Below, piece by piece: positions 1-52,954 of a DNA stretch of 64,000 bases. The notes under the pieces are model-generated. The model saw nothing but the letters and a program-made list of their open reading frames with translations, was not told the DNA's origin and made no database searches. The position numbers were made by a program, and so were the translations under genes. The DNA comes from Escherichia coli (GTDB taxonomy: Bacteria; Pseudomonadota; Gammaproteobacteria; Enterobacterales; Enterobacteriaceae), in NCBI RefSeq assembly GCF_048403405.1, contig NZ_CP183129.1, one strand, 5' to 3'. The first letter of the stretch is position 1. Every line of letters begins with the position of its first letter.

Positions 1-10
1 TAATAATGTT

Positions 11-142
11 ATGAAAAAGAAACCGGTTGCGCAGTTGGAGCGTCAGCATTCACTGCTGGAAAATCCATGTGCTTATGGGTTGTTATCGCAGTTCCAGGCT
101 GCGATAGTCGTTAACTGTTTTACACTTAATAAAATAATTTGA
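11..142 (+). CDS. yqgB: small protein (43 aa), YqgB-like, immediately upstream of speA
   Basis: ATG at 11, 43 sense codons, TGA at 140-142, 8 nt before the speA ATG; translation [43 protein letters not shown]; below ORF-track cutoff; name from recalled K-12 gene order. Confidence 0.55.
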
Positions 143-150
143 GGTTCGCT

Positions 151-2127
151 ATGTCTGACGACATGTCTATGGGTTTGCCTTCGTCAGCGGGCGAACACGG
201 TGTACTACGCTCCATGCAGGAGGTTGCAATGAGCTCCCAGGAAGCCAGCAAGATGCTGCGTACTTACAATATTGCCTGGTGGGGCAATAACTACTATGAC
301 GTTAACGAGCTGGGCCACATTAGCGTGTGCCCGGACCCGGACGTCCCGGAAGCTCGCGTCGATCTCGCGCAGTTAGTGAAAACTCGTGAAGCACAGGGCC
401 AGCGTCTGCCTGCACTGTTCTGTTTCCCGCAGATCCTGCAGCACCGTTTGCGTTCTATTAACGCCGCGTTCAAACGTGCGCGGGAATCCTACGGCTATAA
501 CGGCGATTACTTCCTCGTTTATCCGATCAAAGTTAACCAGCACCGCCGCGTGATTGAGTCCCTGATTCATTCGGGCGAACCGCTGGGCCTGGAAGCCGGT
601 TCCAAAGCGGAGTTGATGGCGGTGCTGGCACATGCTGGCATGACCCGTAGCGTCATCGTCTGCAACGGTTATAAGGACCGCGAATATATCCGTCTGGCAT
701 TAATTGGCGAGAAGATGGGCCACAAGGTCTATCTGGTCATTGAGAAGATGTCAGAAATTGCCATTGTGCTGGATGAAGCAGAACGTCTGAATGTCGTTCC
801 TCGTCTGGGCGTGCGTGCACGTCTGGCTTCGCAGGGCTCCGGTAAATGGCAGTCCTCCGGCGGGGAAAAATCGAAGTTCGGCCTGGCGGCGACTCAGGTA
901 CTGCAACTGGTTGAAACCCTGCGTGAAGCCGGGCGTCTCGACAGCCTGCAACTGCTGCACTTCCACCTCGGTTCGCAGATGGCGAATATTCGCGATATCG
1001 CGACAGGCGTTCGTGAATCCGCGCGTTTCTATGTTGAGCTGCACAAGCTGGGCGTCAATATTCAGTGCTTCGACGTCGGCGGCGGTCTGGGCGTGGACTA
1101 TGAAGGCACCCGTTCGCAGTCCGACTGTTCGGTGAACTACGGCCTCAATGAATACGCTAACAACATCATCTGGGCGATTGGTGATGCGTGTGAAGAAAAT
1201 GGTCTGCCACATCCGACAGTAATCACCGAGTCGGGTCGCGCGGTGACTGCGCATCACACCGTGCTGGTGTCAAATATCATCGGCGTGGAACGTAACGAAT
1301 ACACGGTGCCGACCGCACCTGCAGAAGACGCACCGCGCGCCCTGCAAAGCATGTGGGAAACCTGGCAGGAGATGCACGAACCGGGAACTCGTCGTTCTCT
1401 GCGTGAATGGTTACACGACAGCCAGATGGATCTGCACGATATTCATATCGGCTACTCTTCCGGCACCTTTAGCCTGCAAGAACGTGCATGGGCAGAACAA
1501 CTCTATCTGAGCATGTGCCATGAAGTGCAGAAGCAACTGGATCCGCAAAACCGTGCGCATCGTCCGATTATCGATGAATTGCAGGAACGTATGGCTGACA
1601 AAATGTACGTAAACTTCTCGCTGTTCCAGTCGATGCCGGATGCGTGGGGGATCGACCAGTTGTTCCCGGTTCTGCCGCTGGAAGGGTTGGATCAAGTGCC
1701 GGAACGTCGCGCTGTGCTGCTGGATATTACCTGTGACTCTGACGGTGCTATTGATCACTATATTGATGGTGATGGTATTGCCACGACAATGCCAATGCCG
1801 GAGTACGATCCAGAGAATCCGCCGATGCTCGGTTTCTTTATGGTCGGCGCATATCAGGAGATCCTCGGCAATATGCACAACCTGTTCGGTGATACCGAAG
1901 CGGTTGACGTGTTCGTGTTCCCTGACGGTAGCGTAGAAGTAGAACTGTCTGACGAAGGCGATACCGTGGCGGACATGCTGCAATATGTACAGCTCGATCC
2001 GAAAACGCTGTTAACCCAGTTCCGCGATCAAGTGAAGAAAACCGATCTTGATGCTGAACTGCAACAACAGTTCCTTGAAGAGTTCGAGGCAGGTTTGTAC
2101 GGTTATACCTATCTTGAAGATGAATAA
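151..2127 (+). CDS. speA: biosynthetic arginine decarboxylase (658 aa)
   Basis: ORF-track 139..2127 begins at TTG; internal ATG at 151 gives [23 protein letters not shown]..., the PLP-dependent arginine decarboxylase N-terminus and length as I recall for E. coli SpeA. Confidence 0.93.
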
Positions 2128-2144
2128 TTAAGATTATTCCGCTG

Positions 2145-2185
2145 GCGGGTCAATTTATTTACGTAAATCGGCCCGCTTTCTTTTT
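2145..2185 (+). terminator. hairpin plus T-tract downstream of speA
   Basis: GCGGG...ATTTACGTAAAT (perfect palindrome)...CCCGC followed by TTTCTTTTT, 18 nt after speA stop. Confidence 0.5.
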
Positions 2186-2272
2186 ATATATTCTTAAAAA
2201 TAATTTAGCTGCTTTTCTTATTAAATAATCCCCCTACAATCGCTGCATTAATTAAATACAGAGGGAACGGTT

Positions 2273-3004
2273 ATGAAAAAAGGGAAAGTACGTAGCGCGT
2301 TGATAGCATTAGCCGTGCTGCTGGCCGGTTGTTCCAGTAATGCGCAGTATAATAGCAGTGCATCAGGCAATGTCGGCACCGCCTGGGGTGGGGATGTACA
2401 CTCATCGGTTCAGGGCGTATCTGCTGAGCGAGCCTGGCGCGATCCGGCAGAGATGATCGTTATTAGTTATTCGACTAATGTTCCTTCCGGCTATGACCGC
2501 GTTTATAGCATTCGTATTAACGAACTGGAATATGCTATTCGCGATGGTAATTTTAATTCTCTACCTATTACGCGTGTTTATGATTCATCCAATAATGAAC
2601 CACGCTATATTGTCCATGCCAGAGTCGGAATGAATTATCAATTATATGTCCGTAATTACAGTCGTAACACCAACTACGAGATCGTTGCTACGGTTGATGG
2701 CCTGGATGTGCTGAACGGCAAGCAAGGTTCGCTGAATAACAACGGCTATATTGTGAATGCCGGAGATTCGTTAGCGATTAAAGGATTCCGCAAAGATAAA
2801 CATACCGAAGCGGCTTTTCAGTTCGCCAACGTTGCTGATTCCTACGCAGCCAATTCGGCGCAAGGCGATGTGCGTAATACCGGGGTAATCGGCTTTGCCG
2901 CCTTTGAATTACAAGGCCCGGCGCAAAACGCGATGCCACCGTGCTCTGGACAAGCCTTTCCGGCAGATAACAATGGCTATGCACCGCCACCGTGCCGGAA
3001 ATAG
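2273..3004 (+). CDS. predicted lipoprotein of unknown function (243 aa)
   Basis: ORF-track 243 aa; N-terminus MKKGKVRSALIALAVLLAGC has a signal peptide with lipobox LAGC and Ser at +2; SD GAGGGA 7 nt upstream; mature part rich in Asn/Tyr/Ser; visibly AT-richer than flanking genes; no family recognised by eye. Confidence 0.75.
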   Translation: MKKGKVRSALIALAVLLAGCSSNAQYNSSASGNVGTAWGGDVHSSVQGVSAERAWRDPAEMIVISYSTNVPSGYDRVYSIRINELEYAIRDGNFNSLPITRVYDSSNNEPRYIVHARVGMNYQLYVRNYSRNTNYEIVATVDGLDVLNGKQGSLNNNGYIVNAGDSLAIKGFRKDKHTEAAFQFANVADSYAANSAQGDVRNTGVIGFAAFELQGPAQNAMPPCSGQAFPADNNGYAPPPCRK

Positions 3005-30639: not shown

Positions 30640-30785
30640 CGGTAAAGCCCTCACCGAAGCGAGGGCTTAAAGGAGAAGGGTTATGATGCGACTTGTCATC
30701 ATACTGATTGTACTGTTACTCATAAGTTTGCCAGCTTATTAACAGTCAGTCACAGGGGAGGAGTAATCCTCCCTTACCCTTACTC
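30640..30785 (-). ncRNA. sibC: SibC-like antisense sRNA (antitoxin to ibsC); boundaries approximate
   Basis: Minus-strand promoter-like TTGACA (plus 30813-30818), 17-bp spacer, TAATTT (plus 30789-30794); hairpin GCCCTC-accgaagc-GAGGGC at 30647-30666 as candidate 3' end; fully antisense to ibsC. Confidence 0.45.
30683..30742 (+). CDS. ibsC: type I toxin IbsC-like hydrophobic peptide (19 aa)
   Basis: ATG ATG CGA CTT ... TAT TAA encodes MMRLVIILIVLLLISLPAY; SD AGGAGAAGGG upstream; lies in the serA-ygfA spacer where I recall the ibsC/sibC locus. Confidence 0.6.
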   Translation: MMRLVIILIVLLLISLPAY

Positions 30786-30842
30786 ACTAAATTAGGTTAA
30801 AGAATCAACGATGTCAATCAGGGCGATGCAGGTGTGTCGCCC

Positions 30843-31465: not shown

Positions 31466-31649
31466 GGAATCTCCGAGATGCCGCCGCAGGCTGTAACCCT
31501 TGAACCCTTGGTTCAAGGTGAATGTGTCGTCGCAGTTTTAAGGCTTCTCGGACGGACCGAGCATGCTCACCAACCGCGGAGCGCCACATTCTTGTGGTAT
31601 GAAATATCGGCTCAGGGGACTGGCCCGCTTGCGAACATCTCAGAGAAAT
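31466..31649 (-). ncRNA. ssrS: 6S RNA
   Basis: Reverse complement of 31466-31649 reads AUUUCUCUGAGAUGUUCGCAAGCGGGCCAGUCCCCUGAGCCGAUAUUUCAUACCACAAGAAUGUGGCGCUCCGCGGUUGGUGAGCAUGCUCGG...GGAGAUUCC, matching E. coli 6S RNA from memory; sits between zapA and ygfA. Confidence 0.92.
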
Positions 31650-48503: not shown

Positions 48504-50237
48504 GTGAAACAACAGATACAACTTCGTCGCCGTGAAGTCGATGAAACGGCAGACTTGCCCGCTGAATTGCCTCCCTTGCTGCGCCGTTTATACGCCAGCC
48601 GGGGAGTACGCAGTGCGCAAGAACTGGAACGCAGTGTTAAAGGTATGTTGCCCTGGCAGCAACTGAGCGGCGTCGAAAAGGCCGTTGAGATCCTTTACAA
48701 CGCTTTTCGCGAAGGAACGCGGATTATTGTGGTCGGTGATTTCGACGCCGACGGCGCGACCAGCACGGCTCTAAGCGTGCTGGCGATGCGCTCGCTTGGT
48801 TGCAGCAATATCGACTACCTGGTACCAAACCGTTTCGAAGACGGTTACGGCTTAAGCCCGGAAGTGGTCGATCAGGCCCATGCCCGTGGCGCGCAGTTAA
48901 TTGTTACCGTGGATAACGGTATTTCCTCCCATGTGGGGGTTGAACACGCTCGCTCGTTGGGCATCCCGGTTATTGTTACCGATCACCATTTGCCGGGCGA
49001 AACATTACCCGCGGCGGAAGCGATCATTAACCCTAACTTGCGCGACTGTAATTTCCCGTCGAAATCACTGGCAGGCGTGGGTGTGGCGTTTTATCTGATG
49101 CTGGCGCTGCGCACCTTTTTGCGCGATCAGGGCTGGTTTGATGAGCGCGGCATCGCAATTCCTAATCTGGCAGAACTGCTGGATCTGGTCGCGCTGGGGA
49201 CAGTAGCGGACGTCGTGCCGCTGGACGCTAATAATCGCATTCTGACCTGGCAGGGGATGAGTCGCATCCGTGCCGGAAAGTGCCGTCCGGGGATTAAAGC
49301 GCTGCTGGAAGTGGCCAATCGCGATCCACAAAAACTCGCCGCCAGCGATTTAGGTTTTGCGCTGGGGCCACGTCTCAATGCTGCCGGGCGACTGGACGAT
49401 ATGTCCGTTGGCGTGGCGCTGTTGCTGTGCGACAACATCGGCGAAGCGCGCGTGCTGGCAAATGAACTCGATGCGCTAAACCAGACGCGAAAAGAGATCG
49501 AACAGGGAATGCAAGTTGAAGCCCTGACCTTGTGCGAGAAACTGGAGCGCAGCCGCGACACGCTACCCGGCGGGCTGGCAATGTATCACCCCGAATGGCA
49601 TCAGGGCGTTGTCGGTATTCTGGCTTCGCGCATCAAAGAGCGTTTTCACCGTCCGGTTATCGCCTTTGCGCCAGCAGGTGATGGTACGCTGAAAGGTTCC
49701 GGTCGCTCCATTCAGGGGCTGCATATGCGTGATGCGCTGGAGCGATTAGACACACTCTACCCTGGCATGATGCTGAAGTTTGGCGGTCATGCGATGGCGG
49801 CGGGTTTGTCGCTGGAAGAGGATAAATTCGAACTCTTTCAACAACGGTTTGGCGAACTGGTTACTGAGTGGCTGGACCCTTCGCTATTGCAAGGCGAAGT
49901 GGTGTCAGACGGTCCGTTAAGCCCGGCCGAAATGACCATGGAAGTGGCGCAGCTGCTGCGCGATGCTGGCCCGTGGGGGCAGATGTTCCCGGAGCCGCTT
50001 TTTGACGGTCATTTCCGTCTGCTGCAACAGCGGCTGGTGGGCGAACGTCATTTGAAAGTGATGGTCGAACCGGTCGGCGGCGGTCCACTGCTGGATGGTA
50101 TTGCTTTTAATGTCGATACCGCCCTCTGGCCGGATAACGGCGTGCGCGAAGTGCAACTGGCTTACAAGCTCGATATCAACGAGTTTCGCGGCAACCGCAG
50201 CCTGCAAATTATCATCGACAATATCTGGCCTGTCTGA
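48504..50237 (+). CDS. recJ: ssDNA 5'-3' exonuclease RecJ, 577 aa
   Basis: 577 aa, GTG start; DHH motifs (VVGDFDADG, DHH at TDHHLPG). Confidence 0.95.
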   Translation: MKQQIQLRRREVDETADLPAELPPLLRRLYASRGVRSAQELERSVKGMLPWQQLSGVEKAVEILYNAFREGTRIIVVGDFDADGATSTALSVLAMRSLGCSNIDYLVPNRFEDGYGLSPEVVDQAHARGAQLIVTVDNGISSHVGVEHARSLGIPVIVTDHHLPGETLPAAEAIINPNLRDCNFPSKSLAGVGVAFYLMLALRTFLRDQGWFDERGIAIPNLAELLDLVALGTVADVVPLDANNRILTWQGMSRIRAGKCRPGIKALLEVANRDPQKLAASDLGFALGPRLNAAGRLDDMSVGVALLLCDNIGEARVLANELDALNQTRKEIEQGMQVEALTLCEKLERSRDTLPGGLAMYHPEWHQGVVGILASRIKERFHRPVIAFAPAGDGTLKGSGRSIQGLHMRDALERLDTLYPGMMLKFGGHAMAAGLSLEEDKFELFQQRFGELVTEWLDPSLLQGEVVSDGPLSPAEMTMEVAQLLRDAGPWGQMFPEPLFDGHFRLLQQRLVGERHLKVMVEPVGGGPLLDGIAFNVDTALWPDNGVREVQLAYKLDINEFRGNRSLQIIIDNIWPV

Positions 50238-50328
50238 CGAATTTAGTATGTATAAAATTGAGCCGGGATCCGGTACAATCCCGCTCTTATCACCGCATTT
50301 TGACTAGCTCAATAAAAGAAATCAGACC

Positions 50329-51427
50329 ATGTTTGAAATTAATCCGGTAAATAATCGCATTCAGGACCTCACGGAACGCTCCGACGTTCTTAGGGGGTAT
50401 CTTTGACTATGACGCCAAGAAAGAGCGTCTGGAAGAAGTAAACGCCGAGCTGGAACAGCCGGATGTCTGGAACGAACCCGAACGCGCACAGGCGCTGGGT
50501 AAAGAGCGTTCCTCCCTTGAAGCCGTTGTCGATACCCTCGACCAAATGAAACAGGGGCTGGAAGATGTTTCTGGTCTGCTGGAACTGGCTGTAGAAGCTG
50601 ACGACGAAGAAACCTTTAACGAAGCCGTTGCTGAACTCGACGCTCTGGAAGAAAAACTGGCGCAGCTTGAGTTCCGCCGTATGTTCTCTGGCGAATATGA
50701 CAGCGCCGACTGCTACCTCGATATTCAGGCGGGCTCTGGCGGTACGGAAGCACAGGACTGGGCGAGCATGCTTGAGCGTATGTATCTGCGCTGGGCAGAA
50801 TCGCGTGGTTTCAAAACTGAAATCATCGAAGAGTCGGAAGGTGAAGTGGCGGGTATTAAATCCGTGACGATCAAAATCTCCGGCGATTACGCTTACGGCT
50901 GGCTGCGTACAGAAACTGGCGTTCACCGCCTGGTGCGTAAGAGCCCGTTTGACTCCGGCGGTCGTCGCCACACGTCGTTCAGCTCTGCGTTTGTTTACCC
51001 GGAAGTTGATGATGATATTGATATCGAAATCAACCCGGCGGATCTGCGCATTGACGTTTATCGCGCGTCCGGCGCGGGCGGTCAGCACGTTAACCGTACC
51101 GAATCTGCGGTGCGTATTACTCACATCCCGACCGGGATCGTGACCCAGTGCCAGAACGACCGTTCCCAGCACAAGAACAAAGACCAGGCCATGAAGCAGA
51201 TGAAAGCGAAGCTTTATGAACTGGAGATGCAGAAGAAAAATGCCGAGAAACAGGCGATGGAAGATAATAAATCCGACATCGGCTGGGGCAGCCAGATTCG
51301 TTCTTATGTCCTTGATGACTCCCGCATTAAAGATCTGCGCACCGGGGTAGAAACCCGCAACACGCAGGCCGTGCTGGACGGCAGCCTGGATCAATTTATC
51401 GAAGCAAGTTTGAAAGCAGGGTTATGA
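50329..51427 (+). CDS. prfB: peptide chain release factor 2 with programmed +1 ribosomal frameshift (365 aa)
   Basis: Frame-0 ORF from ATG 50329 ([25 protein letters not shown]) hits in-frame TGA at 50404-50406 within AGGGGGTATCTTTGAC; the +1 frame from 50405 continues as [22 protein letters not shown]... to the end of the ORF-track ORF (50546..51427); GGQ motif present. Confidence 0.92.
50390..50410 (+). promoter_or_regulatory. prfB autoregulatory frameshift site (internal SD + CUU UGA C)
   Basis: AGGGGG (SD-like) 3 nt upstream of CTT TGA C at 50401-50407. Confidence 0.9.
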
Positions 51428-51436
51428 GGAACCAAC

Positions 51437-52954
51437 ATGTCTGAACAACACGCACAGGGCGCTGACGCGGTAGTCGATCTTAACAATGAACTGAAAACGC
51501 GTCGTGAGAAGCTGGCGAACCTGCGCGAGCAGGGGATTGCCTTCCCGAACGATTTCCGTCGCGATCATACCTCTGACCAATTGCACGCAGAATTCGACGG
51601 TAAAGAGAACGAAGAACTGGAAGCGCTGAACATCGAAGTCGCCGTTGCTGGCCGCATGATGACCCGCCGTATTATGGGTAAAGCGTCTTTCGTTACCCTG
51701 CAGGATGTGGGTGGCCGCATTCAGCTGTACGTTGCCCGTGACGATCTGCCGGAAGGCGTTTACAATGAGCAGTTCAAAAAATGGGACCTCGGCGACATCC
51801 TCGGCGCGAAAGGTAAACTGTTCAAAACCAAAACCGGCGAACTGTCTATCCACTGCACCGAGCTGCGTCTGCTGACCAAAGCACTGCGTCCGCTGCCGGA
51901 CAAATTCCACGGCTTGCAGGATCAGGAAGCGCGCTATCGTCAGCGTTATCTGGATCTCATCTCTAACGATGAATCCCGCAACACCTTTAAAGTGCGCTCG
52001 CAGATCCTCTCTGGTATTCGCCAGTTCATGGTGAACCGCGGCTTTATGGAAGTTGAAACGCCGATGATGCAGGTGATCCCTGGCGGTGCCGCTGCGCGTC
52101 CGTTTATCACCCACCATAACGCGCTGGATCTCGACATGTACCTGCGTATCGCGCCGGAACTGTACCTCAAGCGTCTGGTGGTTGGTGGCTTCGAGCGTGT
52201 ATTCGAAATCAACCGTAACTTCCGTAACGAAGGTATTTCCGTACGTCATAACCCAGAGTTCACCATGATGGAACTCTATATGGCTTACGCAGATTACAAA
52301 GATCTGATCGAGCTGACCGAATCGCTGTTCCGTACTCTGGCACAGGATATTCTCGGTAAGACGGAAGTGACCTACGGCGACGTAACGCTGGACTTCGGTA
52401 AACCGTTCGAAAAACTGACCATGCGTGAAGCGATCAAGAAATATCGCCCGGAAACCGACATGGCAGATCTGGACAACTTCGACTCTGCGAAAGCGATTGC
52501 TGAATCTATCGGCATCCACGTTGAGAAGAGCTGGGGTCTGGGCCGTATCGTTACCGAGATCTTCGAAGAAGTGGCAGAAGCACATCTGATTCAGCCGACC
52601 TTCATTACTGAATATCCAGCAGAAGTTTCTCCGCTGGCGCGTCGTAACGACGTTAACCCGGAAATCACAGACCGCTTTGAGTTCTTTATCGGTGGTCGTG
52701 AAATCGGTAACGGCTTTAGCGAGCTGAATGACGCGGAAGATCAGGCGCAACGCTTCCTGGATCAGGTTGCCGCGAAAGATGCAGGTGACGACGAAGCGAT
52801 GTTCTACGACGAAGATTACGTCACCGCACTGGAACATGGCTTACCGCCGACAGCAGGTCTGGGAATTGGTATCGACCGTATGGTAATGCTGTTCACCAAC
52901 AGCCATACCATCCGCGACGTTATTCTGTTCCCGGCGATGCGTCCGGTGAAATAA
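51437..52954 (+). CDS. lysS: lysyl-tRNA synthetase (constitutive), 505 aa
   Basis: 505 aa [53 protein letters not shown]... Confidence 0.95.

Follow-up and report, generated by a model that had tools for sequence, protein, structure and literature searches.

An intact programmed +1 frameshift site in the single-copy prfB gene of an Escherichia coli chromosome

Main

At position 50329 of the window (the whole 64-kb stretch of Escherichia coli DNA analysed here), a reading frame opens and ends after only 25 codons. The open reading frame (ORF) list shows no full-length gene at this point, only the 25-aa piece and a separate 293-aa piece (50546..51427). Do these two pieces belong to one gene for release factor 2 (RF2), joined by a programmed +1 frameshift, or do they mark a pseudogene, a sequencing error or two independent genes? 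The first-pass annotation had proposed the frameshift and had warned that naive ORF calling would mis-annotate prfB, a warning that the ORF list, from which the gene is missing, bears out. We conclude, with a probability of about 98%, that 50329-51427 on the plus strand is the single-copy prfB gene of E. coli with its programmed +1 frameshift site intact, and our analyses turned up no evidence against this reading. The locus is the known RF2 system itself rather than a relative of it, and the site is an already known, textbook case.

Results

Anatomy of the site at codon 26

Frame 0 opens with the ATG at 50329-50331, and the resulting ORF (50329..50406) runs for 25 codons before a TGA. The local plus-strand sequence is AGGGGG TAT CTT TGA C at 50392-50407, read in frame as CTT AGG GGG TAT CTT TGA C. 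The stop of frame 0 at codon 26, with AGGGGG 5' of CTT TGA C, can thus be read directly in the sequence, and every element described in the first-pass annotation as part of an intact site lies, to the base, where it had been placed:

50329..50403, plus strand: prfB segment 1, codons 1-25 in frame 0 (ORF list and translation; aligns with residues 1-25 of the solved E. coli RF2)
50392..50398, plus strand: internal Shine-Dalgarno-like AGGGGG(T), 3 nt 5' of the CTT codon (sequence; consensus AGGGGG in PMC12421855)
50401..50404, plus strand: slippery CTT-T, on which tRNA-Leu would move from CUU to UUU in the P site (sequence; mechanism from PMC12421855)
50404..50406, plus strand: in-frame TGA at codon 26, the RF2-specific sensor stop (ORF list and sequence)
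50407..50407, plus strand: C after the stop (TGA-C), a weak termination context (sequence; PMC12421855)

The AGGGGG proper occupies 50392-50397 and is separated from CTT by a 3-nt TAT spacer. The CTT codon (Leu, 50401-50403) lies directly 5' of the stop and forms the slippery CTTT together with T 50404, and C 50407 also completes GAC (Asp26), the first codon to be read in the +1 frame. Four elements make up the published cassette, namely a TGA at codon 26, an AGGGGG-like Shine-Dalgarno element, a CTT codon that gives rise to the slippery CTTT, and a C after the stop; the consensus for the second of these is purine-rich and sits 3 nt 5' of the slippery sequence and 6 nt 5' of the stop (PMC12421855). 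All four (early TGA, CTTT, Shine-Dalgarno-like element with its 3-nt spacer, TGA-C) are present here.

The 16-nt sequence AGGGGGNNNCTTTGAC occurs once in the 64-kb window when both strands are searched with one mismatch allowed, against a chance expectation of 0.05 matches; at least one match appeared in 4 of 100 shuffles. Position is the stronger argument against chance, as the pattern falls exactly where two reading frames homologous to RF2 meet. Pairing of the site with the 3' tail of E. coli 16S rRNA is predicted at -11.7 kcal/mol, among the strongest 0.075% of plus-strand 10-mers in the window; the window contains no rRNA gene, and the tail used in this calculation is the general E. coli one. 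Rfam searches of the whole window at gathering thresholds, and of 50150-50700 at permissive E-values, assigned the site no family and returned only chance-level matches there, because the signal is a linear motif that is not modelled as a structured RNA. The window contains no tRNA genes.

The joined product is full-length RF2

Joining 50329-50403 to 50405-51427, as the first-pass annotation had suggested, yields 1098 nt that encode 365 aa and a stop. The features of the second segment are as follows:

50405..51427, plus strand: prfB segment 2, codons 26-365 in the +1 frame and the TGA stop at 51425-51427 (translation, profile matches, PDB alignment and RefSeq join)
50942..50950, plus strand: SPF tripeptide, residues 205-207, the RF2 motif for stop-codon recognition (read from the translation)
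51065..51067, plus strand: codon 246, GCG (Ala), the canonical non-K-12 residue (differs from 1ml5; G to A at 51065 in XL1-Blue)
51077..51085, plus strand: GGQ motif, residues 250-252, for peptidyl-tRNA hydrolysis (translation; PMC5373646)

The joined product matches the NCBIfam prfB model TIGR00020 with 525.9 bits over residues 12-362 (cut-off, 370 bits); RF1 models reach 304-306 bits on the same product, under their own cut-offs of 400-423. Both the PCRF and the RF-1 domains of Pfam are present. Homology to the N terminus of RF2, on which the first-pass annotation had staked its reading, begins at residue 1. The two best PDB matches, E. coli RF2 chains 1gqe and 1ml5, align with residues 1-365 and run straight across the junction at 25/26, each with a single substitution (L297V against 1gqe and A246T against 1ml5). 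Past the junction, the +1 frame stays open and encodes the rest of RF2, with the homology unbroken in the PDB alignment. Thr246 (ACG), found in K-12, gives an RF2 of lower activity, and the canonical Ala246 gives a more active one (PMC5373646).

These alignments bear on the possibility that the locus holds two genes, a 25-codon leader ORF and a shorter RF2 of 293 aa that is translated from the internal ATG at 50546 with no frameshift. The +1 frame is open from 50351, and ATG 50546 is indeed its first start codon of any kind (ATG, GTG or TTG), as such an arrangement would need. However, homology to RF2 is unbroken from residue 1 in the PDB alignment, or from residue 12 in TIGR00020, and takes in residues 26-72, a segment encoded 5' of that ATG and conserved at the protein level in Citrobacter. 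The 15 nt 5' of ATG 50546, GATACCCTCGACCAA, show by eye no GGAGG-like Shine-Dalgarno sequence, and the 293-aa product would miss most of RF2 domain 1. We therefore regard internal initiation as very improbable.

Conservation of prfB and its frameshift site

Of 5,425 complete E. coli genomes, 5,400 match the window without a single difference over the 70 nt at 50340-50409, a stretch that includes the cassette, and each E. coli genome has exactly one copy of prfB. The gene in the window differs from that of BL21 at 10 nt and from that of E302 at 19, with no amino-acid change in either case. Such nucleotide changes without amino-acid change within E. coli indicate, at the level of sequence comparison, that prfB is under purifying selection. 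Citrobacter youngae ATCC 29220 likewise has the cassette 63 nt from the ATG, with TGA again at codon 26, and the joined product has the same length (365 aa), 355 of its 365 residues being identical to those encoded in the window. Codons that differ between the two prfB genes comprise 79 synonymous and 10 non-synonymous cases, and 50383-50412 contains no difference at all. What we observe directly is how the site is built, what the joined product is and how well the site is conserved.

The same comparisons decide whether prfB is a pseudogene, broken by a real 1-nt insertion that leaves the locus without a functional RF2. ORF calling gives the picture expected of such a lesion, with one frame closed by TGA after 25 codons and a second ORF of 293 aa. 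The interruption, however, matches the canonical recoding cassette base for base and recurs unchanged in the 5,400 E. coli genomes and in C. youngae, and both segments appear to be under strong purifying selection (10-19 nt but 0 aa changes within E. coli; 79 against 10 codons relative to Citrobacter). Termination at UGA needs RF2, and there is a single prfB copy per E. coli genome from which it could come. Moreover, a full-length RF2 of 365 aa is already known for E. coli B, and it is the identical protein. The conservation pattern in E. coli and C. youngae therefore excludes a decaying pseudogene; the first-pass annotation was right to call the gene intact, and we give its inactivation by insertion next to no credence.

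An extra T at 50404, introduced by sequencing or assembly into an otherwise uninterrupted gene, would produce the same two pieces. Homopolymer errors do occur, and one genome, E. coli O145 RM8995-C1, has only four G in the Shine-Dalgarno-like element and carries prfB in one frame. Yet 5,400 genomes sequenced independently of one another have this T as well, the site has long been known from experiment (PMC12421855), and the outlier is the genome with four G, not the window. A sequencing error is thus as negligible a prospect as a pseudogene, and we reject both, together with internal initiation, on the evidence given for each.

Two genomes depart from the common form of the gene. RM8995-C1 (NZ_CP031355.1) reads AGGGG, with four G instead of five, at the equivalent of 50392-50397; its prfB is thus in a single frame, and the annotation (WP_105166511.1) is that of a normal CDS with no frameshift. 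The missing G may stem from a homopolymer error in sequencing or from an assembly error, or else RF2 autoregulation may have been lost, in nature or in the laboratory. In E. coli NIPH17_0036 (NZ_AP024561.1), the middle of prfB, at the equivalent of 50669-50734, contains scrambled bases and two deletions, one of 9 nt and one of 17 nt. The record lists this prfB, whose frameshift cassette is intact, as a pseudogene ('PCRF domain-containing protein'). The mid-gene scramble may be an assembly artefact.

Proposed frameshift mechanism

The programmed frameshift would work here as in published experiments on the identical K-12/B sequence of E. coli, from which we infer both slippage and autoregulation. 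A ribosome starting at ATG 50329 would translate 25 codons and arrive with CUU (Leu25) in its P site and UGA (codon 26) in its A site. With RF2 plentiful, UGA would be read and a 25-residue peptide released. With RF2 scarce, the poor context UGA-C would keep the ribosome waiting; base pairs would form between the AGGGGG(U) 3 nt upstream and the anti-Shine-Dalgarno tail of 16S rRNA, tRNA-Leu in the P site would slip from CUU to UUU (+1), and GAC (Asp) would be read, leading to the full 365-aa RF2. Termination that depends on RF2 would compete with this slip, and RF2 would in this way limit its own synthesis. Experimental reports on the identical E. coli sequence describe +1 shifting whose efficiency falls as RF2 rises (summarised in PMC12421855). 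The first-pass interpretation of the locus as the RF2 autoregulatory recoding site is supported by the four cassette elements, the RF2 product and the 'programmed frameshift' label in RefSeq.

Annotation and relation to known prfB genes

RefSeq records a two-piece prfB CDS with the remark "programmed frameshift" (WP_001701073.1) in the 100%-identical DNA of E. coli TUM14771 and 4621, and BL21(DE3) encodes the same protein as the prfB of the window (WP_001701073.1). The stretch 50200-51500 is 100% identical in six complete genomes, and the window is a piece of E. coli chromosome. The gene order xerD-dsbC-recJ-prfB-lysS-idi is the standard neighbourhood, with the following gene downstream:

51437..52954, plus strand: lysS (lysine--tRNA ligase), downstream neighbour, starting 9 nt past the prfB stop

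Compared with E. coli B / BL21(DE3) (WP_001701073.1), the locus has the same protein, cassette, codon-26 position and gene neighbourhood. It differs by synonymous changes only (10), including C to T at 50410, and by its divergence in a 40-bp upstream patch that covers the recJ stop and intergenic region. K-12 prfB (WP_010723217.1; PDB 1ml5) has the same cassette and length and 364 of 365 residues in common, its RF2 carrying Thr246 where that of the window carries Ala246. C. youngae ATCC 29220 shares the cassette, its offset, the TAT codon for Tyr27, the tandem frame-0 stop and the 365-aa product, and its upstream patch is nearly identical; across the gene, identity is 91.4% in nucleotides and 355/365 in amino acids. 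In-frame prfB genes, for example those of Actinomycetota, encode members of the same RF2 family but lack the premature TGA, the Shine-Dalgarno-like element and the slippery CTTT, all three of which are present in the window. In a published survey spanning 12,753 genomes, prfB is in frame and without the frameshift motif in 36% (PMC12421855).

The relevance of the site is one of annotation only. A caller blind to recoding would produce a 25-codon stub and a truncated 293-aa ORF, or would label an essential translation factor a pseudogene; modern pipelines such as NCBI's PGAP already handle the site. Its confirmation brings no new biology, and shows only that the strain has normal signals for RF2 autoregulation and the fully active Ala246 variant of RF2.

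Allelic variation around the frameshift site

Two codons past the sensor stop, a synonymous variant creates another stop in frame 0:

50410..50412, plus strand: second frame-0 TGA, from the synonymous TAT allele of Tyr27

With T at 50410, the Tyr27 codon is TAT, as against TAC in K-12 and BL21, and frame 0 reads TGA CTA TGA. The 70 nt at 50376-50445 recur unchanged in about 997 of the 5,425 E. coli genomes, among them that of the type strain ATCC 11775, suggesting that these genomes share the TAT allele. C. youngae also carries TAT at Tyr27 and with it the tandem stop. The variant is probably a neutral synonymous polymorphism.

Near prfB, most of the divergence of the window from typical E. 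coli falls in the 40-bp patch at 50231-50271, which takes in the final two codons of recJ, its stop codon and the first part of the recJ-prfB spacer. Relative to the allele common in E. coli, roughly 14 positions are changed, and the C terminus of RecJ reads ...WPV rather than ...WPI. The patch allele occurs in only 13 of the 5,425 complete E. coli genomes. A scan of genome contigs found a 22-mer from the patch in one species representative, C. youngae ATCC 29220, which differs from the window at 2 positions across the patch; the patch may represent an ancestral state or may have been imported as a short segment. Two nucleotides separate its end from a conserved TACAAT (50274-50279) in the prfB leader. 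A sigma-70 promoter scan of the recJ-prfB spacer gave no convincing promoter, and we assigned none at TACAAT because the hexamer at the -35 position is poor. A terminator-like match on the minus strand (50283-50264), which arises from the palindrome CCGGGATCCGG in the patch, was discarded as being at chance level (1 found, 2.1 expected). That either the patch or the tandem stop TGA-CTA-TGA measurably changes prfB-lysS transcription or the fate of ribosomes reading through the sensor stop, and so retunes RF2 homeostasis in this lineage, strikes us as highly improbable.

Lineage and other features of the window

Across the 25 kb at 39001-64000, an identity of 99% or more to the window is reached by only 8 of the 5,425 complete E. 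coli genomes, which places the strain in a rare lineage of the species. For six of them (4621, MS 69-1, TUM1226, GN02461, TUM14771 and record OX030728) the identity over this region is listed as 100.0%; of the remaining matching records, all but four lie in the 95-99% band.

Between speA and speB, a 243-aa ORF (2273-3004, plus strand) has a lipoprotein-like N terminus (…LLAGCSS…), matches no Pfam family and is annotated as 'hypothetical protein' or 'membrane protein'. Its G+C content (0.45-0.47) is lower than that of its flanks. A 1,011-bp query spanning the ORF is matched over at least 80% of its length in 3,550 of 5,425 E. coli genomes, and other E. coli genomes that were sampled match only its speB end. 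Strain 4621, otherwise near-identical, has an insertion of ~1.4 kb between speA and this ORF that contains an IS110-family 'RNA-guided transposase' and is absent from the window (1-2264 compared).

Two structured RNAs are standard E. coli features. One is a SIB RNA (Rfam RF00113, 138 bits; 30667-30817, minus strand), opposite which the plus strand encodes an Ibs type I toxin of 19 codons (30683-30742); the other is the 6S RNA, its gene ssrS being located at 31466-31649 on the minus strand (RF00013, 140 bits).
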